64,000 nucleotides of DNA from Heterodontus francisci (taxonomy: Eukaryota): the NCBI RefSeq assembly GCF_036365525.1, contig NC_090379.1, positions 75,794,513 to 75,858,512 on the forward strand. Reading direction: 5' to 3'. The translations under genes were made by a program, and so were the position numbers. The number at the start of each line of letters is the position of its first letter. The stretch's first letter is position 1. Shown here one piece after another: positions 5,991 through 54,519 of the stretch. A model generated the notes under the pieces. It was not told where the DNA came from. It made no database searches and was given only the letters and a program-made list of their open reading frames with translations.

Positions 5991-8900
5991 TGTTATGACC
6001 AAGGCGGGAGTAATGCACTGTGAATTCAGTCCCACTCCACAGGCCATAGCATATCAATAAAGCTTCCCACCTACTGAAGAATAGCCAAATTAAACACTGT
6101 ATTTTTCCCCCAGAATAAAGCACACCAATCCAGTTTTCTTTAAACAATAACATTAACTATTTATCAGAAAAGAAATAATAGGTCTTAACTACTAATGAGA
6201 TAAATCTATATGAAAAATGCATTATTTCCTTAACCCTCATGCACACTCATACATTCAAAAAAAAAACTGGGGAAGTAGGATTTTTTGGTTTACAGCTATT
6301 TCTTAGGAATAGAAGGAATAATAAAAAATAATTGAGTTTATCACGCTCTGGTAGGATGTTTTTGGTACAGTGAGGTGTCCCAGAGTCGAATTATCAGATG
6401 GCACTCACATTCTCTCCAGGCATGGTTGATGAACAGTCTGTGATGGGTAGGCATTACGGCAATTTAACTGCAGCAGGCGTCACATAGGTCTTCCACCGGG
6501 GTGTAGCAACAGGTCTGCTTAGGTCAGCAGCAGTCTAGCAGTAGAAGATTGCAGGATTTCTTAGAATACAGGAGGCAGCAGGAATCTTACTGGATGCAGA
6601 AATTCTTCAGAGACTGGAGGCAACAAGAATCTGCCACCTTTCAAATGCAGGATTCCTTTTCAAGAGATGCAAGTCTCCTTTCCAGAGAGATAACACTTTT
6701 CTGGGTCTTTCTCTCTTGCTCCAGGCAGGTCAAAGCAAAGATTTCAAATGCCTGCCCTTTGTCCAATTCACAGGCTTTTTAAAGGGTCCAAGGTAAAAAA
6801 GAACATTCTTGAACATGGTCACATGTCCAGACACAGAGTCTCCCCCGTTACTCAAAAGCTGCTCTGAAAAAAGGTCAAATCTTTGTGGTTTCCTTGAAAT
6901 TGCTGGTTTTCCTGTCCTTGTACGAGTTCAGCTTCCTTTCATGGAGTGTGGTTAATAGGACTGGGGAGGTACAGGTGCAGATTGCCCTGCGAAATACGAT
7001 GTTGTGGCAATAACAGAGACCTGGCTCAAAGAAGGGCAGGACTGGGTGTTAAATATTCCTGGATACAAGGTGTTCAGGAAAGATAGGAAAGAGAAAGAAG
7101 GGGTGGCGGTATTGATTAAGGAGAGCATTGCAATGCTGGAGAAAAAAGATGTCCCAGAGGGGTCAAAGACAGAATCAATTTGGCTAGAGCATAGGAACAA
7201 AAAAGGTGCGCTTACATTGCCCGGTGTTGTCTATAGGCCACCAGCTATTGGGAAGGATGTGGAGTAACAAATTTGCCAGGAAATTACAGAGGTGCAAAAA
7301 TTATAGGGTAATTATAACGGGGGACTTTAGTTATCCAAACATATACTGGGATAATAGTAGTGTAAAGGGTAGTGAGGGGCAAGAGTTCCTAGAGTGTGTT
7401 CAGGAAAATTTTCTGCAACAGTATGTTGCTAGTTCAACAAGAAAGGAGGCATTGCTAGACCTGGTTCTTGGAAATGAGGTGGGCCAAGTGGATCAGGTAC
7501 CAGTAGGGGAGCATTTCGTGGGTAGTGATCATTGTATCATAAGGTTTAGGCTGACTATGGAAAATGACAACTTCAATGAGATAAGAATGGAGCTGGGGTG
7601 AATAAATTGGAGTCAAAAGCTGGTAGGAAAACCGTAGATAAACAATGGGCTACCTTCAAAGAAAAGATAGTTCAGGCACAGTTAAGGTATGTTCCCTCGA
7701 AGGGGAAAAGTAGGGCAAACAAATCCAGAGCTCCCTGGATGACAAAAGAGGTAGAGATTAAGATAAAAAAGAAAAAGTATGCTTATGACAGATGCCAGGT
7801 AGAAAATACTATTGAGAACCAGGCTGAATATAAAAGGTCCAGAAGGGAAGTGAAAAAGCAAATAAGAGAAGCAAAGAGAGAGAATGAAAAGAGACTGGCA
7901 GCCAGCCTTAAGGGAAATCCCAACGTTTTCTATTGGCATATAAATAGTAAGAGGGTGGTAAAAGGAGGAGTGGAGCCGATTAGGGACCAGAAAGGAGATT
8001 TACACATAGAGGCAGAGGGCATAACTGAGGTATAAATGAATACTTTGCATCTGTCTTTTCCAAGGAAGAAAATGAAACCCAGGCAATGTTGAAAGAGGAG
8101 GTAAGACTGACACTAGAGGAGTTTAAAATTGATAAAGAGGAAGTATTAGATAGGCTGTCTGTACTTAAAGTGGATAAAACACCAGGACCGGATAAAATGC
8201 ATCCAAGGATACTGAGGGAAATGAGGGTGGAAATCGCTGAGGCACTGTCCATAATTTTTCAGTCTTCCTTAGACTCTGGGGTGGTGCCAGAGGACTGGAG
8301 AATTGCAAACATTACACCCTTGTTCAAAAAAGGGGGTGAAGATAAGCCCAGCAATTACAAGCCAGTCAGTTTAACTTTGGTGGTGGGAAAACTTCTTAAA
8401 AAATTAATTCAGGACAAAATCAATAGTCAAGTGGACAAATGCGAGTTAATTAAAGAAAGCCAGCATGGATTTCTTGAGGGAAAATCATGTTTAACTAACT
8501 TGCTGGAGTTTTTTGAGGAGATAACAGTAGGGGTTGATGAGGGCAATGCTGTTGATATGGTGTACATGGACTTTCAAAAGGCATTTGGTACAATGCCACA
8601 CAACAGACGTGTGAGCAACCTTGTAGTTCATGGAATAAAAGAGATGGTAGCAACATGGATATGAAATTGGCTGAATGACATGAAACAAAGAGTAGTAGTT
8701 CATGGCTGTTTCTCGGGCTGGAGGAAGGTTTGTAGTGGAGTTCCCCAGGGATCAGTGTTGGGACCCTTGCCTTTCTTGATATATATTAGTGACCTAGACC
8801 TTGGTGTACAATTGCAAAGTTTGCAGGTGATAGGAAACTTGGAAGCATTGTGAACTGTGAGGGGAATAGTGTAGAACTTCAAAAGGATATAGTTGGTGGA

Positions 8901-9897
8901 ATGGGCAGACAGGTGGCAGATGAAGTTTAATGCAAAGAAATGTGAAGTGATTCATTTTATAGGAAGAACATGGAGAGACAAGATAGAATAAAGGGTACAA
9001 TTCTAAAGGGGGTGCAGGAGCAGAGGGACCTAAGTGTATATGTGCAAAGTCATTGAAGGTGGCAAGACGGGTTGAGAGAGCTGCTAATAAAGCATACAGT
9101 ATCCTAGGCTTTATTAATAGGGGCATAGAGTACAAGCGCAAGGAAGGCATATTGAACTTGTATAAGACACTAGTTCGGCCTCAGCTGGAGTATTGTGTCC
9201 AGTATTGGGTGCCACACTTTAGGAAAGACATGAGGGCATTGGAGAGAGTACAGAAAAGATTCACAAGAATGGTTCCGGGGTGAGGAATTTCAGTTATGAA
9301 GACAGATTGGAGAAGTTAGTACTGTTTTCCTTGGAGAAGAGAAGGCTGAGAGGTGATTTGATAGAGGTATTCAAAATCATGAGGGGTCTGGACAGAGTAG
9401 ATAGAGAGAAAGTGTTCCTACTCATGAAAGGTTCGAGAATGAAAGGGCACAGATTTAAAGTATTTGGTAAGGCGAGCAAAAGTGACATGCAGAAAAACTT
9501 TTTCACGCAGCGAGTGGTTAAGGTCTGGAATGCACCGCCTGAGAACGTGATGGAGGCAGGTTCAATTGAAGCATTCAAAAGGGAATTAGACAGTTATATG
9601 ACAAGAAAGAACATGCAGGATTATGGGGAGAAGGCAGGGGAATGGAACTGAGGGAATTTCTCTTTTGGAGAGCCAGTGCGGACACAATGGGCCAAATGGC
9701 CTCCTTCTGCACTTTAACGATTCTGTGATTCAAAGCACCCATAAAGTTCAACTTTTGTTATGACTTTCTTTCAAAACATTGCAGGAATTCCAACTATTTG
9801 CAGGTTTCTGTCCACTGAGCAAAAAAAATCCTTTTCTCAGTTTTTTTAAACACACAGAATTCTAACTTTTCTTTTTAAAAGCAAAACACTTGTAACA
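5991..9897. mobile_element. Solo LTR (Gypsy-like), interrupted by a CR1
   Basis: Termini TGTTA..TAACA; 4-bp TSD ACAG at 5987-5990 and 9898-9901. Its left end is reverse-complementary to the LTR ends at 49523 and 56345. Confidence 0.8.
6945..9731 (+). mobile_element. CR1 LINE, near-complete decayed ORF2 (APE-RT) plus 3' UTR
   Basis: Consecutive ORFs 7004-9651 carry AITETWL, GDFSYP, SDH, QHGF, VYMDFQKAF, QGSVLGP and RRLRGDLIEVFK; tail gattctgtgattc. Confidence 0.95.
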
Positions 9898-10468: not shown

Positions 10469-10862
10469 GGCACAGTGGTGCAGTGGTTAGCACTGCAGCC
10501 TCACAGCTCCAGCGACCCAGGTTCAGTTCTGGGTACTGCCTGTGTGGAGTTTGTAAGTTCTCCCTGTGACTGTGTGGGTTTCTACTGGGTGATCTGGTTT
10601 CCTCCCACAGCCAAAGACTTGCAGGTTGATAGGTAAATTGGCCATTATAAATTGTCCCTAGTGTAGGTAGATGGCAGGAGAATTGTGGGGATGTGGAAGG
10701 GAATAATGTCTTTCTTTGTCTTTGGCCTCCTTGTCTTGAGAGACAATGGGTAAGCGCCTGGAGGTGGTCAGTGGTTTGTGAAGCAGGATTAGCATAAATG
10801 GGTGGTTGATGGTCAGCACAGAGTCAGTGGGCCTGAGGGCCTGTTTCAGTGCTGTATGACTC
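10469..10862 (+). mobile_element. HE1-type V-SINE (tRNA head, CR1-derived tail)
   Basis: A-box tggtgcagtgg, B-box-like ggttcagttc, V-domain tgtgtgggtttc..ggtttcctcccacagccaaagac, and tail gggcctgtttcagtgctgtatgactc. Confidence 0.85.
10709..10786 (-). mobile_element. ~80-bp RTE 3'-end fragment nested in the HE1 SINE
   Basis: Aligns with 27016-27089, the RTE 3' UTR and tail: ggcctccttgtcttgagagacaatgg..gtggtcagtggtttgtgaagcag. Confidence 0.85.
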
Positions 10863-11920
10863 GATAAATAATATTCCACTAGTTTGGTTCAAGAGAAACA
10901 AACCCTTAAGCAGTTTCCAGTAAAACAAAACTGACAGTACTAACTTATTATTTTACCTATTTCAGGCTGACTACTGAATATATGTTAATTTTAAGCATAT
11001 TTCTAATTTCTAACACCGGATTGGATCAGATGCATCCAAGGTTCCTTGGGAAGTAAGGGAAGAAATTGTGAAAGGTAGTGGCCATAATCTTCCAATCCTT
11101 CTCAGATATAGGGTTGGTGCCAGAGGACTGGAAAATTGCAAATAATACACCCTTGTTCAAAAAAATGTGTAAGCATAAATCCAGCAATTACAGGCTAGTC
11201 AGTTTAACCTCGGTGGTGGAAAATCTTTTAGAAACAATAACTTTGGACAAAATTACAGTCACTTGGACAAAAGTGGAATAATTAAGGAAAGCCAGCACAG
11301 ATTTGTTAAGGTCAAATTGTGTTTAAATAACTTGATTAAGTTTTTCAATGAAGTAACAGCAATGATTGATGAGGGTAATGCAGTTGATGTGGTATCTATG
11401 GGCTTTCACAAGGTGTTTGATAAAGTGCCACATAACAGGCTTGTAAGCAAATTTAAAGCCCATGCAATAACAGTGACAACCTGGATATGAAGTTGGCTGA
11501 GTGACAAGAAACAGAGTGTAGTGATAAATTGTTGTTTTTTGGACTGGAGCAAAGTATATAGGGGTTCCCCAGGGGTCAGTAATAGGATCACTGCTTTACT
11601 TGATATATATTAATGACCTAGATTTGGATATGCAGGGCACAATTTCAAAATTTGCAGATGACACAAAACTTGAAAGTATTGTTAACAGTGAAGAGAATAA
11701 TGACTTCAGGAGGACATAGACTGGCTGGTGGAATGGGCAGACACATGGCAGTTGAAATTTAATGCAGAGAAGTGTGAAGTGAAACATTTTGGTAGGAAGA
11801 ATGAAGCAAGGAAATAAAAAATAAAGGATACAATTCTAAAGGGGGTGCAGGAGCAGAAGAACCTGGGGTATATGTGCACAAATCATAGAAGGTGGCAGGG
11901 CAGGTTGAGGTAGTGGTTAC

Positions 11921-14900
11921 TTTTTTTTATATTATCCATTCATGGGATGTGGGCATCACTGGCCAGGCCAGCATTTATTGCCCATCCCTAATTCTCCTTG
12001 AGAAGGTGGTGGTGAGCTGCCTTCTTGAACTGCTGCAGACCATGTGAGGTAGGTACCCCCACAGTGCTGTTAGGAAGGGAGTTCCAGGATCTTGACCCAT
12101 CGACAGTGAAGGAACGGCGATATAGTTCCAAGTCAGGATGGTGTGTGACTTGGAGGGGAACTTGCAGGTGGTGTTGTTCCCATGCATTTGCTGCCTTGTC
12201 CTTCTAGTTGGTAGAGGTCGTGGGTTTGGAAGGTGCTGTCTAAGGAGCCTTGGTGCATTGCTGCAGTGCAACTTGCAGATGGTACACACTGCTGCCACTG
12301 TGCGTCAGTGGTGGAGGGAGTGACTGTTTGTAGATGGGGTGCCAATCAAGTGGGCTGCTGTGTCCTGGATGGTGTCGAGCTTCTTGAGTGTTGTTGGAGC
12401 TGCACCCATCCAGGCAAGTGGAGAGTATTCCATCACACTCCTGACTTGTGGCTTGTAGATGGTGGACTGGCTTTGGGGAGTCAGGAGGTGAGTTACTTGC
12501 CGCAGGACACCTATCCTCTGACTTGCTCTTGTAGCCATGGTATTTCTATGGCTACTCCAGTTCAGTTTCTGGTCAATGGTAGCCCCTAGGATGTTGATAG
12601 TGGGGGATTCAGCGATGGTAATGCTATTGAATGTCAAGGAGAGATGGTTAGATTCTCTCTTGTTGGAGATGGTCATTGACTGGCACTTGTGTGGCATGAA
12701 TGTTACTTGCCACTTATCAGCCCAAGCCTGGATATTGTCCAAGTCTTGCTGCATTTCTACACAGAATGCTTCAGTACCTGAGGAGTCACGAATGGTGAAC
12801 ATTATGCAATCATCAGCGAACATCCGCACTTCTGACCTTATGATTGAAGAAAGGTCATTGACGAAGCTGCTGAAGATGGTTGGGCCTAGGACACTACCCT
12901 GAGTAACTCCTGCAGTGATGTCCTGGAGCTCAGATGATTGACCTCCAACAACCACAACCATCTTCCTTTGCGCTAGGTATGACTTCAGCCAGCAGAGGGT
13001 TTTCCCCCGATTCCCAATGACCTCAGTTGTGCTAGGGCTCCTTGATGCCATACTCGGTCAAATGCTGCCTTGATGTCAAGGGCAGTCACTCTCGCCTCAC
13101 CTCTTGAGTTCAGCTCTTTTGTCCATGTTTGAACCAAGGCTGTAATGAGGTCAGGAGCTGAGTGGCCCTGGCGGAACCCAAACTGAGCATCACTGAGCAG
13201 GTTATTGCTAAGCAAGTGCCGCTTGATGGCACTGTTGATGACACCTTCCATCGCTTTACTGATGATTGAGAGTAGGCTGATGGGGTGGTAATTGGCTGGG
13301 TTGGACTTGTCCTGCATTTTGTGTACAGGACATACCTGGGCAATTTTCCACATTGCAAAATAGATGCCAATGTTGTAGCTGTACTGGAACAGCTTGTCTT
13401 GGGGTGCAGCAAGTTCTGGAGCACAGGTCTTCAGTAGTATTGCCTGTATACTGTCAGGGCCCACAGCCTTTGCAATATCCAGTGCCTTCAGTCGTTTCTT
13501 GCTGTCACGCGGAGTGAATCGAATTGGCTGTGGTCTGGCATCTGTGATGCTGAGGACTTCAGGAGGGGGCCAAGATGGATCATCAACTCAGCACTTCTGG
13601 CTGAAGATTGTTGCAAATGCTTCAGCCTTATCTTTTGCACTGATGTGCTGGGCTCCCCCATCATTGAGGATGGGGATATTTGTGGAGCCACCTCCTTCAG
13701 TTAGTTGTTTAATTGTCCACCACCATTCACGGCTGGATGTGGCAGGACTGCAGAGCTTAGATCTGATCCGTTGGTTATGGGATCGCTTAGCTCTGTCTAT
13801 CGAATGCTGCTTACGCTGTTTGGCACGCAGATAGTCCTGTCTTATAGCTTCATTTTGAGGTATCCGTGGTGCTGCTCCTGGCATGCCCTCCTGCACTCTT
13901 CATTGAACCAGGGTTGGTCTCCTGGCTTGATGGTAATGGTAGAGTGGGGGATATGCTAAGCCGTGAGGTTACAGATTGTGGTTGAGTACAATTCTGCTGC
14001 TGCTGATGGCCCACAGTGCCTCATGGATGCCCACTTTTGCACTGCTCAATCTGTTCGAAATCTATCCCATTTAACACAGTGGTAATGCCACACAACACGA
14101 AGGAGGGTATCCTCAATGTGAAGGCAGGACTTCGTCTCCACAACGACTGTGCAGTGGTCACTCCTACCAATACTGTCATGGACAGATGCATCTGCAGCAG
14201 GCAGATTGATGAGGACGAGGTCAAGTATGTTTTCCCCCTTTTGTTGGTTCCCTCACCACCTGCCGTATACCCAGTCTTGCAGATATGTCCTTTAGGACTC
14301 GGTCAGCAGTGGTGCTACTGAGCCACTCTTGGTGATGGACATTGAAGTCCCCCACCCAGAGTACATTCTGTGCCCTTGCCACCCTCAGTGCTTTCTCCAA
14401 GTGCTGTTCAACATGGAGGAGTACTGATTCATCAGCTGAGGGAGGGTGGTAGGTGGTAATCAGCAGGAGGTTTCCTTGTCCATGTTTGACCTGATGCCAT
14501 GAGACTTTATGGGATCTAGAGTCGAGGTTAAGGACTCCCAGGGAAACTCCCTCCCTACTATATACCACTGTGCCGCCACCTCTACTGGGTCTGTCCTGCC
14601 AGTGGGACAGGACATACCCGGGGATGGTGATGTCAATGTCTGGGACATTGTCTGTAAGGTATGATTCCGTGAGTATGACTATGTCAGGCTGTTGCTTGAC
14701 TAGTCTGTGGGACAGCTCTCCCAACTTTGGCACAAGCCCCCAGATGTTAGTAGGGAGGACTTTGCAGGGTCAACAGGCTGGGTTTGCTGTTGTCATTTCC
14801 GGTGCCTAGGTCGATGCCGGGTGGTCTGTACGGTTTCATTCCTTTTTATTGACTGCGTAGCGGTTAGATACAACTGAGTGGCTTGCTAGGCCATTTCAGA

Positions 14901-15194
14901 GGACATGTAAGAGTCAACCATATTGCTGTGGGTCTGGAGTCACATGTAGGCCAGACCAAGTAAGGACAGCAGATTTCCTTCCCTAAAGGGCATTAGTGAA
15001 CCAGTTGGGTTTTTACAACAATCGACAATGGTTTCATGGCCATCATTAGACTAGCTTTTTTGAAATTCCAGATATATTAATTGAATTCAAATTCCATCTT
15101 CTGCTGTGGTGCGATTTGAACCCATCCCCAGAGAAATACCATGTGCCTCTGGGTTACTAGTCCACTGACAATACCACTACGCCACCGCCTCCCC
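11921..15194 (-). mobile_element. Full-length tRNA-headed, ORF1-less LINE (CR1/L2-group APE-RT), decayed
   Basis: 5' end GGGGAGGCGGTGGCGTAGTGG followed by a ~430-nt leader. APE motifs TNIWGL, VILTESYL and WVGDFN (14221-14770); RT motifs QFGFR, LDIKAAFD, QGSVLGP and MFADD; stop at 11988. 3' UTR GGGATGGGCAATAAATGCTGGCC..CCCACATCCC then an A-rich tail. Confidence 0.9.
15112..15184 (-). promoter_or_regulatory. Type 2 Pol III internal promoter (A box and B box) at the LINE 5' end
   Basis: A box TGGCGTAGTGG at 15184-15174, starting 10 nt inside the 5' end; B box GGTTCAAATCG at 15122-15112. Confidence 0.8.
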
Positions 15195-15919
15195 TTGAAA
15201 GGACATATGGGATTCTGGGCTTTATAAAAAGAGGCATCGAGTACAAAAGAAAGGAAGTTATGATGAACCGTTATAAAACACTGGATCGGCCTCAACTGGC
15301 ATATTGTGTCCAATTCTGGGCACCACACTTTAGGAAGGATGTGAAGGCATTGGATAGGGTGTAGAAAACATTTACAAGAACGGTTCCGGAGATGAGAGAC
15401 CTCAGTTACGAAGATGGATTGGCGAAGCCGGGATGTTCTCTTTGGAGAAGCGAAGGTTGACAGGAGATTTGATCGAGTTATTCAAAATCATGAGGGGTCT
15501 AGTCAGACTAAATGGGCAGAAACTGTTTGCACTAGTGGGAGGGTCGAGAACCAGAGGACACCAATTAGAGGTAATTGGCAAAAGAACCAGAGGCAACATG
15601 AGGAAAATCTTTTTTTTCAGCAAGTGGTTAGGATCTGGATTGCACTGTCTGAGAACGTAGTGGAGGCAGATTCAATCATGGCTTTCAAAAGGGAATTGCA
15701 TAATTATCTGAAGAGAAAAAATTTCCAGGACTACAGTGAAAAGGCAGGGGAATGGGGCTGGCTGAGTAGCTCTTACAGAGAGCTGGTATGGAAATGATGG
15801 GCCAAATGGCCTCCTTTTGTGCTGTAACCATTCTATAATTCTAAGTCATAAACAGTGATATAGCTGCTCCAGGTGAAAGTAATATTAAAATAACCTAAGT
15901 AGTTGCAGCAGGAGTAACA

Positions 15920-26189: not shown

Positions 26190-26471
26190 GATTTAGATTT
26201 TAGATTTAGAGATACAGCACTGAAACAGGCCCTTCGGCCCACCGAGTCTGTGCCGACCATCAACCACCCATTTATACTAATACTACACTAATCCCATATT
26301 CCTACCACATCCTCACCTGTCCCTATATTCCCCTACCACCTACCTATACTAGGGGCAATTTATAATGGCCAATTTACCTATCAACCTGCAAGTCTTTTGG
26401 CTGTGGGAGGAAACCGGAGCACCCGAAGAAAACCCACACAGACACAGGGAGAACTTGCAAACTCCACACAG
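26190..26471 (-). mobile_element. HE1-type V-SINE, 5' truncated
   Basis: Reverse complement of the body and tail of 10469-10862. Confidence 0.85.
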
Positions 26472-26885
26472 GCAGAAGATTGTGGGTTCAAGTCCCACAC
26501 CAGGACTTGAGCACAAAATCAAAGCTGATGCTCCAGTGCAGCACTGAGGGAGTGCTGCACTATAGGAGATGCTATTGTTTGGATGAGTTGTTAAACTGAG
26601 TCCCCATCTGCCTGCTCGGTTGGATGTAAAAGATCCCATTGCACTATTTTGATGAAGAGCAGGAGAATTATCCCTGGTATCCTGGTCAATATTTATCCCT
26701 CAAACAACATCACAAAAACAGGTTATCTGGCCATTATCACATTGCTGTTTGTGAAAATTGGCTTCTGCATTTCCTACATTATAACAGTGACTACACTTCG
26801 AAGTACTTCATTAGCTGTAAAGTACTTTGGTACTTCCAGTGGTCGTGAAAGAGGCTATATAAATGCAAGACTTTCTTTTTCTTTT
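26472..26885 (+). mobile_element. tRNA/Deu-domain SINE (SacSINE1-like) with L2-type tail
   Basis: B box gggttcaagtccc; Deu-like core gatgtaaaagatcccattgcactatttt..gaagagcagg; tail gctatataaatgcaag. Confidence 0.8.
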
Positions 26886-27013: not shown

Positions 27014-28024
27014 TTTCTTTCTTTTGGGCCTCCTTATCTCGAGAGACAATGGATACGCGCCTGGAGGTGGTCAGTGGTTTGTGAAGCAGCGCCTGGAGTG
27101 GCTATAAAGGCCAATTCTAGAGTGACAGGCTTTTCCACAGGTGCTGCAGAGAAATTTGTTTGTCGGGGCTGTTGCAAAGTTGGCTCTCCCCTTGCGCCTC
27201 TGTCTTTTTTCCTGCCAACTGCCAAGTCTCTTCGACTCACCACACTTTAGCCCCGTCTTTATGGCTGCCCGCCAGCTCTGGCGAACGCTGGCAACTGATT
27301 CCCACGACTTGTGATCAATGTCACAGGATTTCATGTCGCGTTTGCAGACGTCTTTATAGCGGAGACATGGACGGCCGGTGGGTCTGATACCAGTGGCGAG
27401 CTCGCTGTACAATGTGTCTTTGGGGATCCTGCCATCTTCCATGCGGCTCACATGGCCAAGCCATCTCAAGCTTCGCTGACACAGTAGTGTGTACAAGCTG
27501 GGGATGTTGGCCGCCTCGAGGACTTCTGTGTTGGAGATACGGTCCTGCCACCTGATGCCAAGTATTCTCCGGAGGCAGCGAAGATGGAATGAATTGAGAC
27601 GTCGCTCTTGGCTGACATACGTTGTCCAGGCCTCGCTGCCGTCGAGCAAGGTACTGAGGACACAGGCCTGATACACTCGGACTTTTGTGTTCCGTGTCAG
27701 TGCGCCATTTTCCCACACTCTCTTGGCCAGTCTGGACATAGCAGTGGAAGCCTTTCCCATGCGCTTGTTGATTTCTGCATCGAGAGACAGGTTACTGGTG
27801 ATAGTTGAGCTTAGGTAGGTGAACTCTTGAACCACTTCCAGAGCGTGGTCGCCAATATTGATGGATGGAGCATTTCTGACATCCTGCCCCATGATGTTTG
27901 TTTTCTTGAGGCTGATGTTTAGGCCAAATTCATTGCAGGCAGCCGCAAACCTGTCGATGAGACTCTGCAGGCACTCTTCAGTGTGAGATGTTAAAGCAGC
28001 ATCGTCAGCAAAGAGGAGTTCCCT
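27014..28024 (-). mobile_element. Young RTE-clade LINE, 5' truncated (RT C-terminal half plus C2H2 zinc finger)
   Basis: Open frame ELLFADDAAL..RWLGHVSRM..CSTCGKACHSRIGLYSHSRRC, short 3' UTR, (GAAA)-type tail; CpG-rich. Confidence 0.95.
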
Positions 28025-29560
28025 GTTTCGAATGCTACGTGCATTCAGATACAAAACCTTTTGTACTCTCTATCCCTTCCTGTCATAGTCTGTTTATCAT
28101 TTCCCATATTAATACCTTTCTCTCTTGCCTTGTCTCTACTCTTTGATTTAACACTTCTTCCCAAATTTGATCCCTTGCCGCCACTATTTAGTTTAAAACC
28201 CTCTCTACTTCTCCAGTTCTGCTGCTTGCTAGAACACCAGCCTCAGCACGGTTCAGATGTAGACCATCCAAATGTTACAGCCCCCACTTCCCCAGTACTG
28301 GTGCCAGTGTCCATGAACTGGAACTCACTTCTACCACACCAATCTTTGAGCCAGGCATTCAATTCTCTAATCTTATTTACGCTATGCCAATTTGCACTTG
28401 GCTCAGGTAATAATCCAGAGAGGAACCTTTGAGGTTCTGCTTCTTAATTTGGTTCCTAGCTCCTCATACTGACTGTGCAGAACCTCCTTCCTCATCCTGC
28501 CTATGTCATTGGTACCTACATGGACCACGACGACTTGATCCTCCCCCTCCCACTGTAATTCCTCTCCAGTCCTGAGCAGATGTCCCAAATCCTGGCACCG
28601 GCAGGCAATACAGCCTTCTGGACTCTCGCTCTTTGCTGTAGAGAACAGTGTCAATCTCCCTCACTTTCCTATCCCCTACTACCACTACATTCCTTTTTGC
28701 TCCCCCCACTTGAATGGCTTCCTGTACCACAGTACCATGGTCAATTATCTCATCCACTCTGCAGCCTCCACTTTCATCCAAACAAGCTGAAAGAACCTCA
28801 AACCTTTTGGACAATCACAAAGGCTGAGGCTCCTGCACTCCTGCCCTCTGGGTCCCCTTACTTGCCTTAGCTGCAGCCACTCTCTCCTGTCCCTTACTGC
28901 TGATGAAATCAGAAGACCCTATCCTAAGGGGTGTGACTGCCTCCTGGTACAAAGTGTCCCAGTAACTTTCCCCTTCCCTGATGTGTCGCAGTGTCTGCAG
29001 CTCGGCCTCCAACTCAATGACTCTGAGCCGAAGCTCCTCGAGCCACAAATACTTACTGCAGATGTGTTTGCCCTGGATCACACTGGCATCCAGGAGCTCC
29101 CACATGCTGCAGCCGTGACAAATCACCTGTCCTGTCATCCTTAATGTGTTTAATTAACTATATAATTATTTTATTCAATTATTTATTTTCCTTTTCTATA
29201 TATTTTATTAACCTCACCACCACTTCCTGTACTATTTTAAACCTTAGGAATAGAATAGACAATAACCACTTATCAGATACCAAACAGCTAGCTTCTTCCC
29301 TGAACTCCCAGCGCTCTGTTCAAGTTGCACTCTAAATCCTGTCCTCTCCTGCTGCTTCTCTCTGAATCTCCGAGCTTTGGCGCACTTTTTGAATCCTCTC
29401 ATTTTCCCGCTGATTCTCTCTGAGTCGCCAGGTTTTGGTGCACTTTTTAAATCCTCTCCACTCCTGTGCTGGCTCTCCTTCATTGGCCCATGCTTGCCCA
29501 AGCAGCTGTAAATTTTCTCCCAGACTATTTATTCTAAAAGTTTCCCCACCACTCACACTA
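28025..29560 (-). mobile_element. CR1 5' portion: 5' UTR, ORF1 (Cys zinc finger, leucine zipper, SGNH esterase), start of APE
   Basis: CHGCSMWE..HICSK..LRVIELEAEL, VVVVGD and VVHVGTNDIG motifs; YLNARSIRN at the RTE junction. Confidence 0.9.
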
Positions 29561-32212: not shown

Positions 32213-34313
32213 TGCCAATCTTGGACTCCAGTTTACCTGGGCCAGATGCCTCCTCAATTCACTGAAATTCCCCTCCTCCAGTTAAATATTTTTATTCTAG
32301 ATTGCTCCTTGTCCTTCTCCATAGCTAATCTAAGCCTCATACTATGATCATTGTTCCCGAGATGCAGTGACATTCTCCACTGGAGCCATTTCATTCACCA
32401 TGGCTAGATCCAGCAATACCTCCTTCCTCATTGAACAGGAAACATACCTATCAAGAAAATTCTTCTGAACACAGTTCAGAAATTCCTCCCGTTTCTCTGC
32501 CTTGAACACCATCACTGTTCTATTTGATAGCAGGGCAGTTAAAGTCTCTCATTTATTACTACTCTATCATTCTTGCTCCTTCACTAATTTGTTTACAATT
32601 CTTCTTCTCTATCTCCTTCCACTATTTGGTGGCCTATGAAATAGACCAAGTAGCATAATAACTCCTTTATTGTTTCTTAACTCCAACCAAATACATTCTG
32701 TCTTTGACATCAAGGACATTCTCTGTTTTGAACACTGCAATATTTTCCTTAATCAAAAACTGCTACCCATCCCCGCCTTTCTTTCCCTTCCCTATCTGAC
32801 CTGAATACCTTGTGCCCAAGAATATTAAGTATCAACCCTCCCCCTTTTTAAGCCAGGTCTCCGTTATCACCACTACATCATATCTCCATGTGACTATTTG
32901 TGCCTGCAGCTCACTAACCTTATAAACCATACTTTGTGCACTTACACACGTGCACTCCAAATCTAACTTAGACCTCTTTGTATCTTCTGTGATCCCATTT
33001 AATTCTGTATTGTTTCTGTCTCTCCCAGTTCTCTGCACACCTTGTTTCTACCTTTTATTACTATATCTTGTTTCCTAACTCCTGCCTATTTACTTTACAC
33101 CCTCCCTCACATCACTAGTTAACCTGCCCATAAGGATATTGATCCCAGCTCTTTTCAAATGCAAACTGCCCAACTTGCTCAAGACCTTCTTGCCACAGAA
33201 CGGTCTCAATGCCCCCGGACTCTGAAGTCTTCCCTCCTGCATCAGGTCTCAACCTCGCTTTAACCTCCCATTGCTTCTATTTCTAATCTCATTAGCACAT
33301 GGCAGTGGGACTAATCCAGAAATTATTACCTTCGAGGTTCTGCTTTTTAATTTCTTCCCTCGCTCGTTAAACTCTGAATTCAGGACCTGAATCCTTTTCC
33401 TTCCTACGTTGCTGGTTCAGGCATGGACCACAGCTTCTGGTGCTTCCCCGTCCCCTCACAGAATGCTCTGCACCTTCTCTGTGATGTCCCTTACCCTGGT
33501 ACCAGGGAGGCAACATACCATGTGGATCTCACGCCAGTGGTAGCAGAACTACTAGTCTGTGCCTGACTATCAAATCCCCAATTACTGCTGGTCAGATGAT
33601 TTACGTCATGAAAGCCATGTCCTCCAGACAGTGATGGCTACATTGCTCTTGGGTATCTCTTCCCAAGCTTTTCTGCCCAGAGCTTCATTCATGTTTCTCC
33701 AAAAAGGGAAACAGAACTAACTTACTCACTTTCAACTTGTTGAAACAGAAACTCCATGCACACATTATTAAAGGAGGAGATCCAAATAACTGAGTACAAT
33801 TTTGAGGTGATTCTGGACAGCTTTTTAAAATAAACAGGCACAGAGGAACAGAACTCACCAAAGACATTAAATTGGAACACCTCTTCCAAATTCCCAACAA
33901 TGCACTGCAGCAAGCTGATTCATAGAAGGCCTAACATTCTCTTCTAGTTTCCTGGGTGTTTCAATCCAGTGCTAAATTGGATAAATCTTAAGCATGCCTC
34001 AGACTTTCCTCACACAAATGAGGACAAGAAAATTTGGCAATATCAGATGTTTCCAGGTGGAGAATACTTTTGTTTTGCTTCCCTTATTTAGCCTCCACTC
34101 CACTGCTCCCCAGAAAAATTTATCCTCGTGCTATCTGAGAGAGTTTGTGATGGACTACATTTTATTTTGTATCATTTAGTCTGAGTGCTTAAAAAAAAAC
34201 TATGGCTGGAGTAGCTGTCAGTGCTTCTTTTCAGAGGCACATAGTACTATTTCATTCTGATAAAGTAAATAAACTCCAATTTGCATGTTTTTATGTTGTG
34301 CCTTCACACTGGT

Positions 34314-35036
34314 CCAGACTGGCCAAGAGAGTGTGGGAAAATGGCGCACTGACACGGAACACAAAAGTCCGAGTGTATCAGGCCTGTGTCCTCAGTACCT
34401 TGCTCTACGGCAGCGAGGCCTGGACAACGTATGCCAGCCAAGAGCGACGTCTCAATTCATTCCATCTTCGCTGCCTTCGGAGAATACTTGGCATCAGGTG
34501 GCAGGACTATATCTCCAACACAGAAGTCCTTGAAGCGGCCAACACCCCCAGCTTATACACACTACTGAGTCAGCGGCGCTTGAGATGGCTTGGCCATGTG
34601 AGCCGCATGGAAGATGGCAGGATCCCCAAAGACACATTGTACAGCGAGCTCGCCACTGGTATCAGACCCACCGGCCGTCCATGTCTCCGTTATAAAGACG
34701 TCTGCAAACGCGACATGAAATCGTGTGACATTGATCACAAGTCGTGGGAGTCAGTTGCCAGCATTCGCCAGAGCTGGTGGGCAGCCATAAAGACAGGGCT
34801 AAATTGTGGCGAGTCGAAGAGACTTAGTAGTTGGCAGGAAAAAAGACAGAGGCGCAAGGGGAGAGCCAACTGTGCAACAGCCCCAACAAACAAATTTCTC
34901 TGCAGCACCTGTGGAAGAGCCTGTCACTCCAGAATTGGCCTCTATAGCCACTCCAGGCGCTGCTTCACAAACCACTGACCACCTCCAGGCGCGTATCCAT
35001 TGTCTCTCGAGATAAGGAGGCCCAAAAGAAGAAGAA
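34314..35036 (+). mobile_element. Young RTE-clade LINE, 5' truncated, with TSD
   Basis: Uninterrupted frame to ..SHSRRCFTNH*, (GAA)n tail, and 10-bp TSD TCACACTGGT at 34304-34313 and 35037-35046. Confidence 0.95.
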
Positions 35037-37039: not shown

Positions 37040-37400
37040 GTGAATCTGTGATGCTGGGGAACTCAGGAGGAGATCGAGATGAATCACCCACTCTGCACTT
37101 TTGGCTGAAGATAGTTGCAAATGTAACTTGTCTTTTGTATGCATGTGCCAGGCTCCCTGACCATTGAAGATGGGGACGTTCATGGAGCCTCCTCCTCCCT
37201 TTAGTTGTTTAATTGTACACCACCATTCACGACTGAATGTGACAGGACTGCAGAGCTTTGATCCAATCCATTGGCTGTGGGATCGCTTAGCTCTCCGTCA
37301 ATAGCACGCTACTTCCATTTTTAGCAGGTTTGTCGTCCTGTGTTGTAGCTTCATCAGGTTGGCACCTCATTTTTAGGTATAATCAATGCTATTCCTTGTC
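37040..37400 (-). mobile_element. Older internal fragment of the tRNA-headed LINE family (another at ~37740-37870)
   Basis: Aligns with 13560-13870, e.g. ttagttgtttaattgt.caccaccattcac..ggactgcagagc. Confidence 0.75.
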
Positions 37401-40020: not shown

Positions 40021-43000
40021 CATCTGGTTCACTAATGTCCTTCAGGGAAGGAAATCTGCCATCCTTACATGTAACTCCAGACCCACAGCAATGTGGTTGA
40101 CTCTTAAATGCCCTCTGAAATGGCCTAGCAAGCCACTCAGTTGTATCAAATAGCTACAAAGTCTAAGAGGATTGAAAACGGACAAACCACCCGGCATCGA
40201 CCAAAGCACTGGAAACTACAATGGCAAACCCAACCCTGTCGACCCTGCAAAGTCCTCCTTACTAACATCTGGGGGCTTGTGCCAAAATTGGAAGAGCTGT
40301 CCCACAGACATGTCAAGCAACAGCCTAACGTAGTCATACTCATGGAATCATATCTTGCAGACAATGTCCCAGACACCACCATCACCATCCCTGAGTATGT
40401 CCTGTCCCACTGGCAGGACAGACCCAGCAGTATAATGGTACACAGGCGGGAAAGTGTTGCCCTGGGAGTTCTCAACATTGACTCTGGAACCCATGAAGTC
40501 TCATGGCTTCAGGTCAAACATGGGCAAGAAAACCTCCTGCTGATTACCACTTACCGCCCACCCTTGACTGATGAATCAGTACTCCTCCATGTTGAACAGC
40601 AATTGGAAGAAGCACTGAGGATAGCAAGAGCACAAAATGTACTCTGGGTGGGGGACTTCAATGTCCATCACCAAGATTGACTCGGTAGCATCACTACTGA
40701 CCAAGCTGGCTGACTACTAAAGGACATAGCTGCTAGTCTGGTTATGTGGCAGGTGGTGAGGGAACCAACAAGAGGGAAAAACCTACTTGACCTCGTCCTC
40801 ACCAATCTACCTGTCATAGATGCATCTGTCCATGAAAGTATTGGTAGGAGTGACCACCGCACCGTCCTTGTGGAGATGAAGTCCCGTCTTCCCACTGAGG
40901 ATACCCACCGTGCTGTGTGGCACTACCACTGTGCTAAATGGGATAGATTTTGAACAGATCTAGCAACTCAAACCTGGGCATCCAAGAGGGCCATCAGCAG
41001 CAGAACTGTATTCAACCACAATCTGTAACCTCATGGCTCGGCATATCCCCTACCATTACCATCAAGCTGGGGAATCAACACAGTTTCAATGAAGAGTGCA
41101 GGAGGGCATGCCAGGAGCAGCATCAGGCATAACTAAAACTGAAGTGTCAGCCTGGTGAAGCTACAATATAGGACTACATGCATGCCAAACAGCAGAAGCA
41201 GCATGTAATAGACAAGGCGAAGCAACCCCACAACCGACAGATCAGATCTAAGCTCTGCAGTCCTGCCATATCCAGTCATGAATGGTGGTGGACAATTAAA
41301 CAACTGACAGGAGGAGGAGGCTCCACAAATATCCCCATCCTCAATGATGGGGGAGCCCAGCACTTAAGTGCAAAGGGCAAGGCTGAAGCATTTGCATCCA
41401 TCTTCAGCCAGAAGTGCCGAGTGGATGATCCATCTCGGCCTCTTCCTGAGGTGCCCATCATCACAGATGCCAGTCTTCAGCCAATCCAATTCACTCCATA
41501 TGATATCAAGAAACGGCTGAAGGCAATGGATACAGCAAAGGCTGTGGATCCTGACAACATTCCGGCAATAGTGCTGAAGACTTATGCTCCAGAACTAGCC
41601 GCGCCCCTAGCCAAGCTTTTCCAGTACAGCTACAATACTGGCATCTAACGCAAACGTTACACCCTTGTTCAAAAAGGGTGTAAAGTTAAGCCCAGCAATT
41701 ATAGGCCAGTCAGTTTAACTTCGGCAATGGGAAAACGTCCAGAAAAAATAATTTGGAACAAAATCAGTCGTCACATGGACAAATGCAAGTTAATTAAGGA
41801 AAGCCAGCATGGATTCCTTAAGGGAAAATCATGTTTAGTTAACTTGCTGAGTTTTTTGAGGAGGTAACAGAGAGGGTTGATGAGGGCAATGCTGTTGATG
41901 TGGTGGACATGGACTTTCAAAAGGCATTTGATACAATGCCACTCTCTGGTACAACAGACTTGTGAGCAAACTTGTAGCTCATGGAATAAAAGGGACAGTA
42001 GCAACATGGATATGAAATCAGCTGAGTGACAGGAAACAAAGAGTAGTGGTTAATGGATATTTTTCGGGCTGGAAGAAGGCTTGTAGTAGAATTCCCCAGG
42101 GGTCAGTGTTGGGACCTTGCTTTTCCTGATATATATTAATGACCTAGACCTTGCTGTACAGGGCACAATTTCAAAGTTTGCAGATGATAGGAGACTTGGA
42201 AGCATTGTGAACTGTGAGGAAGATAGTGTGAAGCTTCAAAAGGACATTGACAAGTTGATGGAATAGGCAGACAGGTGGCAGATGAAGTCAATGCAGAGAA
42301 ATGTGAAGTGATTCATTTTAGTCAGAAAAACATGGAGACACAATATAAAATAAAAGGCTACAATTCTAAAGGGGTGCCGGAGCTGGGACCTGGGTGCATA
42401 TGTGCATAAGTCATTGAAGGTGGCAGGACAGGTTGAGAGAGTGGTCAATAAAACATACAGTATCCTGGGCTTTATTAATAGGGGCATACAGTACAAGAGC
42501 AAAGAAGTTATGTTGAACTTATATAAGACACTAGTTCGGCCTCAGCTGGAGTATTGCGTCCAATTCTGGACGCTGCACTTGAGGAAAGACGTGAGGGCAT
42601 TGGAGAGAGTACAGAAAAGATTCACGAGAATGGTTCCAGGGATGAGGAATTTCAGTTGTGAAGATAGATTGGAGAAATTAGGACTGTTTTCCTTGGAGAA
42701 GAGAAGGCTGAGAGGTGATTTGATAGAAGTATTCAAAATCATGAGGGGTCTGGACAGAGTAGATAGAGAGAAACTGTTCCCACTCGTGAAAGGATCGAGA
42801 ATGAGAGGGCACAGATTTAAAGTATTTGGTAAGGGAAGCAAAAGTGACATGAGGAAAAACTTTTTTATGCAGCGAGTGGTTAAGGTCTGGAATGCACTGC
42901 CTGAGAGTGTGGTGGAGACAGGTTCAATTGAAGCATTCAAAAGGGAATTAGACATTTATATGAAAAGGAAGAACGTAGAAAGTTATGGGGAGAAGGCAGG

Positions 43001-44509
43001 GGAATGGAACTGAGGGAATTGCTCTTTCGGAGAGCCAGTGCGGACATAATGGGCTGAATAGCCTCCTTCTGCATTGTAACGATTCTGTGATCTACCCAGC
43101 AATGTGGAAAATTGCCTAGGTATGCCCTGGACTCAAAAAGCAGGACAAATCCAAACCGGCCAATTACCACCCTATCAGTCTACTCTCGATCATCAGTAAA
43201 GTGATGGAAGGTGTCATCAACAGTGCTATCAAGCAGCACTTGCTCAGCAATAACCTGCTCACTGACGCTCAGTTTGAGTTCCGCCAGAGCCACTCAGCTC
43301 CTGACCTCATTACAGCCTTGGTCCAAACATGGACTAAAGAGGTGCGGTGAGAGTGACTGCCCTTGACAACAAGGCAGCATTTGACCAAGAATGGCATTAA
43401 GGAGCCCTAGCAAAACTGGAGTCAATGGGAATCAGGGGGAAAACTCTCCATTGGTTGGAGTCATACCTAGCACAAAGGAAGATAGCTGTGGTTGTTGGAG
43501 GTCAATCATCTCAGTCTCAGGACATCACTGCAGGAGTTCCTCTCGGTAGTGTCCTAGGCCCAACCATCTTCAGCTGCTTCATCAATGACCTTCCCTCCAT
43601 CATAAGGTCAGAAGTGCAGATGTTCACTGATAATTACACAACATTCAGCACCATTCGCGACTCCTCAGATACTGAAGCAGCCCATATGCATATGCAGCAA
43701 GACCTGGAAAGCAGCCAGGCTTGGACTGATAAGTGGCAAGTAACATTCGTGCCACACAAGTGCCAGGCAATGACCATCTCAAAGAAGAGAGAATCCCCTA
43801 GACGTTCAATGAATGGGATTCAATCACTGAATCCCCCACTATCAACTTCCTGGAGGGGGTTACCATTGACTAGAAACTGAACAGGACCAGCCACATAAAT
43901 GCTGTGGCTACAAGAGCAGGTCAGATGCTAGGAGTCCTGCGGTGAGTAACTCACCTCCTGACTCCCTAAAGCCTGTCCACCATCTACAAAGCACAAGACA
44001 GGAGTGTGATGGAATACTCTTCACTTGTCTGGATGGGTGCAGCTACAACAACACTCAAGAAGCTTGACACCATCCAGCACAAAGCAGCCCACTTGATTGG
44101 CAACCCATCCACCACATTCAACATTCACTCCCTCCACCACCACCGCACAGTGGCAGCAATGTGTACCATCTACAAGATGCACTGCAACAACTCACCAAGG
44201 CTCCTTCAACAGCACCCTCCAAACACACATCCTCTACCACCTAGAAGGACAAGGGCAGCAGATGCATGGGAACACCACCACCTGCAAGTTCCCCTTCAAG
44301 CCACACACCATCCTGACTTGGAACTATATCGCCATTCTTTCACTGTCGCTGGGTCAAAATCATGGAACTCCCTTCCTAACAGCTCTGTGGGTATACCTAT
44401 CCCCACCCAAGGTCTGCAGCGGTTCAAGAAGGCTGCTCACCACCACCTTCTCAAGGGCAATTAGGGATGGGCAGCAACGCCCACATCCCCCAAATGAATA
44501 AAAACAAAA
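40021..44509 (+). mobile_element. Second copy of the tRNA-headed ORF1-less LINE (head truncated), split by a CR1
   Basis: Same leader (ctggttcactaatg..ggcctagcaagccactcag) running into CKVLLTNIWGL; RT at 43100-44464; same 3' UTR ending cccacatcccc..aatgaataaaaacaaaa. Confidence 0.9.
41648..43090 (+). mobile_element. CR1 LINE RT and 3' end nested in the previous element
   Basis: ORF 42402-43013 is nearly identical to 9053-9651; tail gattctgtga; probable TSD ATCTA at 41643-41647 and 43090-43094. Confidence 0.95.
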
Positions 44510-53021: not shown

Positions 53022-53253
53022 TGTGTCTGCGTGGGTTTTCGCCGGGTGCTCCGGTTTTCTCCCACAGCCAAAGACTTGCAAGTTGATCGGTAAATTGGCC
53101 ATTATAAATTGCCCCTAGTATAGGTAGGTGGTAGGGGAATGTAGGGACAGGTGGAGATGTGGTATGAATATGGGATTAGTGTAGAATTAGTATAAATGGG
53201 TGGTTGATGGTCAGCACAGACTCGGTGGGCTGAAGGGCCTGTTTCAGTGCTGT
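53022..53253 (+). mobile_element. HE1-type V-SINE, 5' truncated
   Basis: tgcgtgggttttcgccgggtgctccggttttctcccacagccaaagac..gggcctgtttcagtgctgta. Confidence 0.85.
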
Positions 53254-54519
53254 AAAATTCACTTATCTAAATATAGAACCAATTTGGGCTGGGGGTTATT
53301 TCAGACCTGCCAGCTTACTGTTTTGCTTAAAGATTAGCTAAACTTTGGTAAACTTTGTTTTTAAAAATATAATTTGGCAACATAATTTCTATCGAATAAA
53401 ACAGCACATTCTTTGGTCAATACCATAGAGAGATAGGACCGGAAATGGTTCCTGCTGCATTAGCATGTGGACTGTTCCATAAAAATTCACTGAATTAGAT
53501 GAAACATTAAGGTTCTGCTAGCAGCAGGAGTTGAAGATTAAAAAATGACAGCGATCCCAAATTTGGTACAATGGCTTAAACTACTACTTGGAATAATGAA
53601 TATGCTTTTCAGATTACAAACCACATTTTTGTTATCTGTCATGCAACAGCTGAAAATATTTCCTGTATGATTTTTATGTTGCCTTTTGTTAAACCAACAA
53701 TGGATCCATATATATAGATTTTCAAAATAAGTTGGAAATGTAATTGTTTTAATTTGACACAGACATGCTCAAAAGTAGCCTTAAGGGATAATTTAACCTT
53801 ACTTAAAAAGGTACATTTCAAGAGTATGTTCAAAAGCCCAGCATTGGTACACAACTTGAACATGGTGAGCATGGGTCGTGGAAAAATTAAGCCTCAAATA
53901 GTTTCCAATCCTCTCCTCGCCACAGTGCATGCTGACATCACATGTCTGCAATTGTGGTTTTCATAAAGATTTTAAAAAGCAAATAAAAGCCAAGTGGGTC
54001 AGGTTTCTAAATTTTGACAACCTTTTCCGAGAGAGAGGAGTTGGGACAATTGTGACTTTTAATGCTGGGTTTTTAATAGGAGTGCATATTCACGAGATTT
54101 AATATATAACGGCTGAACTGGTTCTTGACTGGGGCAGAGACTGCATCATCTTGAAGGTAAGTGGCTTAACAGATATATAATCTGGGTATTCAGAAAGAAA
54201 ACTGATATCTGTGTTGGAAAACCTTATTATCTTGGTCAGTATGCGAAAGGGACAGACACTAACACAGCAAGAGGCTTTTAAGAACAGATCTGATCTTTCA
54301 GTCAGTCTGGTTTTTGGGAGATGAGATGCTACAAAGGTGATAAAGTCCTGCCAAAGGGTTTGAAAAAAGGGAGAGGAGAGAGTTCTGTGCTGAGCAGAAG
54401 TTATTCTGTTGAAGTGAAATTAAGATGACCCATTTCAAAGTGGGATAGGACTGCACGTTCCCATTTTGTCCTGCATGAATACAACTTGTACCTATTGAAT
54501 AAAGTAACTTTGATCATAC

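Follow-up and report, generated by a model that had tools for sequence, protein, structure and literature searches.

The window, a 64,000-nt stretch of the Heterodontus francisci genome (contig NC_090379.1, positions 75,794,513 to 75,858,512), carries on its minus strand at 11921-15194 a decayed, full-length copy of a Zenon LINE, 3274 bp long, inserted into a CR1. The copy differs by 4.8% from the column majority of 30 copies and is dead, with stops and frameshifts in its coding frame. Element positions are given as q coordinates on the minus strand, with q1 at window position 15194, and ‘majority’ denotes the most frequent letter in each column of an alignment of natural copies, which served as our yardstick. 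The element and its relatives in the window comprise the following features:

11921..15194, minus strand: Zenon copy, full length, decayed, inside a CR1
15100..15194, minus strand: head derived from tRNA-Thr(AGT), its variable arm carrying a hairpin insert of ~17 nt and its 5′ end fixed at 15194
15174..15184, minus strand: Pol III A box, TGGCGTAGTGG
15154..15160, minus strand: anticodon loop (AGT), retained
15112..15122, minus strand: Pol III B box, GGTTCAAATCG
14872..15099, minus strand: non-coding body common to the ~400-nt partner SINE, with several upstream ATGs and the SINE joint at q323-325
14700..14839, minus strand: conserved AUG (q356) that follows an A-rich linker; in the family it opens a frame of 46 codons, which is stopped earlier here
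11990..14885, minus strand: single APE-RT frame, in the family some 970 codons long and with an N-terminal stretch rich in Arg, broken here
14296..14748, minus strand: APE endonuclease domain (Pfam PF03372, E 3e-11)
12578..13308, minus strand: reverse transcriptase domain (Pfam PF00078), spread over two frames
13000..13008, minus strand: G/A homopolymer in the RT, one base short here and in 29 of 52 scored copies
11921..12004, minus strand: 3′ tail common to the SINE, with a short A run at its end
40021..41647, plus strand: second Zenon copy, 5′ part, headless, starting at q188
43099..44473, plus strand: second Zenon copy, 3′ part, beyond a CR1 insertion at 41650-43091
37044..37380, minus strand: older Zenon-family fragment, 79% identity

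The family is abundant, with 43,105 first-look candidates in a search of the 6.0-Gb genome, 40 of which were scored. Its 5′ end is fixed: 19 of the 29 other best copies, which were picked by length so that this share is not a genome-wide rate, start at q1-6. Pooled searches yielded 64 headed copies, of which 46 run on into the LINE body, all entering it at the same point, and 18 are short (one copy, L009, was reassigned to the LINE class). The 5′ flanks of these 64 copies are unrelated, with common sequence abutting the junction in 0 of 2016 flank pairs, which indicates that q1 is the true 5′ end and that no ORF1 lies farther upstream. Only an overlapping 46-codon frame precedes the APE domain, whose first motif starts at q447. 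A preliminary description of the locus had claimed that the element is full length and leaves no room for ORF1, and had proposed checking that full-length copies share the head, all of which these comparisons bear out. Target-site duplications are short or absent, with no clear target motif seen, and the 3′ ends are A runs, that is, poly-A rather than a microsatellite. Half of the ten 5′-truncated copies (L010, L011, L017, L023 and L028) start at q261-271, or about 14924-14934 in the window, where a small hairpin with a GCAA loop could mark an RT stop or a second start site. The second copy in the window lacks the head and is split by a CR1, while the first sits in an older CR1 (11012-15845), and this reciprocal nesting implies that CR1 and Zenon were active in overlapping periods.

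The family, which the preliminary description thought might already be in repeat databases, is a published one. Stuart et al. 2026 (PMC13343379) describe shark and ray Zenon elements, all without ORF1 and ending in poly-A, and from 5′ identity to their consensus rows, which were compared over the first 400 nt, we assign our element to the elasmobranch Zenon LINEs of the CR1 group; both the family and its lack of ORF1 are thus already known. Since all Zenon elements are already on record as lacking ORF1, its absence is not evidence for Pol III. In a quick RT tree, which contained no named Zenon RT, excluded three rows without an RT match and was used solely for placing controls, the element falls far from the canonical CR1 of the genome. 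The published Zenon-1 elements CarCar, HypSab, RhiTyp, ScyCan and SquAca resemble the window element in length (3.24-3.31 kb), absence of ORF1, APE-RT content and poly-A end, and by eye are nearly identical to it over the first 400 nt. All five rows start with the same head, and their A-box changes, as judged by eye, stay within the consensus. The words ‘tRNA’ and ‘polymerase III’ occur zero times in the main text of that paper, as does ‘tRNA’ in the searched text of its supplement, and the head, the T-tract avoidance, the out-of-frame AUG and the partner SINE are not described in that text. The two hagfish Zenons and the coelacanth one differ, by eye, in having no such head and in carrying T4+ runs in their first 400 nt, where the 5′ ends are perhaps poorly trimmed.

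The tRNA-like head, with its A box at 15184-15174 and B box at 15122-15112, had been recognized in the preliminary description and was confirmed. With relaxed thresholds, ARAGORN calls a tRNA in 60 of the 64 heads, 52 of them with anticodon AGT, as against 1 of 320 shuffled sequences; default ARAGORN and Rfam runs on the window did not call the head. The best match, in a set comprising only Thr and Lys tRNA genes, is the tRNA-Thr of the same genome (z 6.5), and alignment to tRNA-Thr(TGT) places the D, anticodon and T arms in order, with an insert of ~17 nt in the variable arm. From the 5′ end of the head it is 10 nt to the A box and ~3 nt to the start of the tRNA acceptor stem. Type 2 promoters and SINEs have their start site at such a position relative to the A box. 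No excess of G was found at position −1 of the heads (12 of 64, against a background of about 13), which may be a weak hint against a capped template. The A and B boxes are kept no better than neighbouring bases among the copies (0.945 and 0.935 vs 0.941); this ordinary conservation is expected of dead copies and lends no support to Pol III use either. Neither head nor body gave a blastn match in 80 metagenome loci. Two observations on tRNA genes of the genome arose alongside: tRNA-Lys(TTT) genes are tandemly arrayed in units of ~1.7 kb (L188-L193; G000 C28, 10.9-11.15 Mb), and many identical tRNA-Thr(TGT) genes (L171-L187) lie on C35 and on unplaced contigs.

The same head and tail occur in a SINE of ~400 nt. 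A head-only search returned 30 loci, 12 with a LINE body and 18 short, the latter joining head to tail at q323-325 to q3176-3203 (n=11), q337 to 3127 (n=3), q348-352 to 3124 (n=2), and, more rarely, q396 to 3085 or q1120 to 3073 (n=1 each). An older head subfamily, 73-83% like the window copy, yielded a single LINE among 25 loci, the others being short and mostly carrying the same joint, and SINE-form joints are present in contigs of four organisms. The longer short forms hold LINE-only sequence and thus arose from the LINE by deletion. For the main ~400-nt form either the SINE or the LINE may have come first; the simpler origin would be that a headless Zenon captured the head of a SINE, since the relatives outside lack one. 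Of the traits of SINE2 elements, a tRNA-derived head with A and B boxes is present, whereas the short, non-coding character applies to the ~400-nt form and not to the 3.3-kb coding element (dN/dS 0.18). Motif searches for Deu, V, CORE, Meta and UCON3 bodies, as given in two published supplements, produced no convincing match. In the 3′ tail of the young family an AATAAA stands ~40 nt before the A run, where the older SINE form has AACAAA. The encoded terminator that T+ SINEs carry just before the A tail is lacking, most copies having one T there. A captured terminator was considered as the source of oligo-T before the A tail and rejected, since a T directly follows the A run in 10 of 12 tails with T4+ vs 13 of 42 others (P 0.002) and total length stays constant, as fits quasi-palindrome conversion. 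In tails such as L005, L012, L030 and L044 the A tail with its T has often been turned into a T4-6 A5-6 palindrome (10 of 12).

We next consider T-tracts on the sense strand. The counts in the preliminary description hold, with one T4 run in the window copy (13360-13357), two in the second copy (at 40948 and 41617) and nine in the CR1 at 6945-9731. Its chance estimate of 5-6 runs stands against a mononucleotide shuffle (5.3, P 0.022) and fails against a dinucleotide shuffle, where only 2.5 are expected (P 0.28), so that scarcity of T4 in a single copy proves little. Its observation that the two-copy consensus is free of T4 is borne out at family level. Specifically, the 30 copies contain 20 T4 runs in all, none common inside the element; per 5-nt bin a run is shared by at most two copies inside the element and four at the tail, and A4, C4 and G4 runs are common to up to all 30 copies of the same set. 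More broadly, 119 genomic Zenon pieces (272 kb) contain 0.12-0.35 T4 per kb, vs 1.4 for RTE, 3.3 for CR1 and 5.5 for L2.

For a coding-frame test we took the majority of the 18 in-frame copies among 57, which gives an open frame of 933 codons that is cut off at the locus edge and contains no T4 and four T3+ runs. Zero T4 is by itself weak (P 0.0125 in a mononucleotide shuffle) and not significant under codon-aware nulls (P 0.08 in a synonymous and 0.33 in a CpG-aware shuffle), and the statistical weight lies more in avoidance of T2 and T3. Against the CpG-aware synonymous shuffle, T3+ runs number 4 vs 9.6 expected (P 0.002), T|T codon junctions 5 vs 16 (P 0.0002) and windows with four Ts in five 1 vs 5 (P 0.03). 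The antisense strand of the frame, with 11 T4, is normal, by which avoidance of self-insertion was rejected as the cause. CR1, RTE and L2 elements of the same genome, sampled at 20 loci each, show no T-tract deficit (P 0.11-0.98), with 9 T4 and 31 T3+ in CR1, 3 and 20 in RTE, and 5 and 18 over 464 codons in L2. The RTE is matched in composition (T 0.204 vs 0.202 for Zenon) yet has these 3 T4 and 20 T3+; its T|T junctions are low in a plain shuffle (16 vs 25.8, P 0.007), a deficit that is gone after allowing for CpG decay. Depletion of T-tracts thus survives the proposed comparison with codon-aware controls and other LINEs, on the strength of T3+ runs and T|T junctions more than of absent T4. 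With this, each sequence prediction of the preliminary description holds, and its reading of the element as read through by Pol III is partly supported.

The deficit also stands out among relatives. All 44 related ORFs of at least 600 aa, from the 80 metagenome loci, have at least five T4, and their lowest T3 ratio of observed to expected is 0.85; the closest relative, L091, has 7 T4 and 31 T3+ at a T content of 0.235. From a regression of 47 ORFs on their T content, Zenon would be expected to have 19.7 T3+ and 3.6 T4, where 4 and 0 were observed. Amino-acid use is shifted as well, with Phe at 1.7% in the Zenon frame vs 3.1-7.0% in the relatives, while 8 of 10 conserved Phe residues are retained and the TTA codon goes unused. 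No TCTTT terminator (the motif being that of PMC10572872) was found in the frame. Taken whole, T-tract avoidance is strong and specific to the sense strand. The TT dinucleotide is itself depleted (observed/expected 0.70), more than T4 termination needs, so that the depletion could stem from some other force acting against U. Among shared changes to T, those producing runs of 1, 2, 3 and 4 number 11, 6, 1 and 0, with 294, 204, 46 and 5 opportunities, and these 18 changes, a small number, show no visible avoidance of longer runs. One metagenome relative without a detectable tRNA head, L113, has a milder T4 deficit (5 vs 14, z −3.5, plain shuffle). Searching for an older LINE subfamily recovered chiefly copies of the main family.

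The long APE-RT frame opens behind a stop at q307, and its first in-frame Met does not occur before codon 285; its Arg-rich start resembles the basic N-terminus of a 976-aa relative (P0001). Ten ATGs lie upstream at q70-356, the last of which 47 of 49 copies retain; in 39 of the 49 it is offset from the APE phase by one base, so that the 46-codon frame it opens overlaps the long frame out of phase. Each of the five published Zenon-1 rows also has the q356 ATG, which in the stingray row stands in the same phase, as read by eye in the first 400 nt. In the overlap no slippery site or significant fold was found, and folding of the leader and of the overlap gave no signal (z −1.8 to +1.4). From this arrangement, initiation on the long frame must be unconventional under either polymerase, which would weaken the objection that Pol III RNA is uncapped. 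Non-CpG variants present in at least six copies comprise 39 synonymous and 23 replacement changes (dN/dS 0.18), whereas private non-CpG variants give 0.93; the low ratio for shared variants indicates that the source elements were autonomous. The one-base loss in the G/A run at q2190 is common and does not mark a lineage: a frameshifted non-autonomous subfamily and a programmed RT shift were both rejected, as 53 shared variants fail to separate the classes. Most in-frame copies have the G run of this homopolymer broken by an A, and the fraction of copies one base short varied with the query used, being 26 of 29 for one and 5 of 27 for another. Slippage seems frequent given that the copies have diverged by only 4%.

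From these features we propose that the element is probably an autonomous LINE transcribed by Pol III and translated independently of a cap. An ancestral Zenon would have acquired, probably via template switching, the first ~323 nt of the SINE that is its partner. TFIIIC and Pol III would start 10 nt upstream of the A box, read 3.3 kb because oligo-U tracts have been purged, and stop at the first flanking T-run. Ribosomes would enter internally, as ten upstream AUGs would block scanning, and would reach the long frame either by initiating at a non-AUG codon or by initiating at the conserved q356 AUG and then shifting by −1. The protein would act mainly on its own RNA, copied from the A-tract by target-primed reverse transcription, and internal deletions that preserve promoter and tail would give ready-made SINEs. 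We also lean, on balance, towards the broader reading that the genomes of sharks and rays harbour a natural Pol III unit, 3.3 kb long and protein-coding, which arose by a SINE-head promoter swap before the shark-ray split, had its codons and amino acids reshaped for Pol III, is expressed cap-independently via a non-AUG start or frameshift, and sheds SINEs by deletion. The headed Zenon family is one evolutionary sample, as the five headed species are relatives. Published work indicates that type 2 Pol III promoters can give translated reporter RNA after removal of TTTT (PMC8223928, which cites Gunnery and Mathews 1995).

The alternative that survives best, possible though in our judgement unlikely, is that Pol II makes the coding RNA, from an internal body promoter or by host read-through, with the SINE head retained either because it serves the stability, translation or processing of the RNA or through frequent SINE exchange, and with T-poverty reflecting avoidance of U-rich decay or cleavage, or RT bias. 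LINEs are regarded as Pol II units in reviews (PMC5786205, PMC10886601), the Zenons of Lepidoptera function with no Pol III head (PMC6740152), and the excess TT depletion, the AATAAA of the young family and the 5 of 10 truncated copies beginning at q261-271 would all suit such a transcript. However, three co-resident LINE families and 44 relatives lack the T-tract deficit, which in Zenon spans the whole frame and extends to amino-acid use; the 5′ end is SINE-like, lying upstream of the acceptor stem and not at the RNase P site; and AACAAA replaces AATAAA in the older SINE form. A division of labour, in which Pol III makes the reverse-transcribed RNA (in effect a 3.3-kb coding SINE) and protein is supplied in trans from Pol II transcripts of copies within host genes, appears improbable. 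It accounts for the head and the purge of T-tracts without translation of an uncapped RNA, the abundant SINE derivatives show that the protein works in trans, and the same RT frameshift occurs in over half of the scored copies; against this, dN/dS of 0.18 on source-lineage variants implies that the copied RNA is the translated RNA, and the frameshift, which does not track lineage markers, resembles repeated slippage in a homopolymer. Finally, chance juxtaposition of a SINE beside a truncated LINE, with low T4 from base composition, has almost nothing left to recommend it: although a single copy is not significant against dinucleotide shuffles, it is refuted by the 46 of 64 heads that run into the LINE body at the same point, with unrelated flanks, by the common 5′ start of the best copies, by the same structure in five other species and by the ordinary T-runs of the composition-matched RTE.

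Searches of the open full-text literature turned up no account of an autonomous LINE transcribed by Pol III, and the preliminary description likewise knew of none for this family. The head on an autonomous Zenon is apparently an undescribed promoter architecture with a specific terminator-avoidance signature, though parts of it have parallels. The lepidopteran Zenon with its internally deleted derivative Persaeus (PMC6740152) is likewise a CR1-group LINE without ORF1 and with short derivatives retaining both ends; Persaeus, as described there, lacks both homology to tRNA and a Pol III promoter, whereas both the long and short shark forms carry a predicted one. RTE-1_DAn and relatives (Repbase; PMC5786205) are LINEs reported with tRNA-like sequence, as in Zenon here, but belong to the RTE clade, and the comparison is by description, the report being a one-sentence mention without position, promoter role or terminator analysis. 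Bov-tA, SINE2-1_ACar and the shark elements HE1 and SacSINE1 combine a tRNA head, a body and a LINE tail, and our ~400-nt form is of the same kind; in them the head sits on a non-coding LINE remnant, and here also on an autonomous coding LINE. The TRIMp3 elements Cassandra, Helenus and Ajax (PMC10886601) also have a Pol III promoter derived from a small RNA and reach 1.26 kb, but are non-autonomous, non-coding LTR elements, unlike the coding Zenon.

RNA polymerase III normally makes only short non-coding RNAs. If Zenon is a Pol III-transcribed LINE, a long-lived, high-copy vertebrate family would break the division of polymerases between LINEs and SINEs, and would offer a natural model for how an uncapped RNA of 3 kb is translated, provide a template for designing long cassettes expressed by Pol III, and open a direct path by which a LINE gives rise to SINEs. 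In the reviews that assign LINEs to Pol II, SINEs encode no protein and Pol III limits element length (PMC5786205, PMC10886601), known SINEs measuring 100-700 bp, a length tied to weak Pol III processivity (PMC10886601), which speaks against a Pol III transcript as long as Zenon.

Two further repeat families were seen in the window. A young RTE family, at 27019-28069 and 34312-35030 on the minus strand and also at L221-L240, was recently active, with 98% identity between copies and an open majority frame of 817 codons, and another short repeat family has at least three copies, at 10536-10857, 26212-26475 and 53022-53254.
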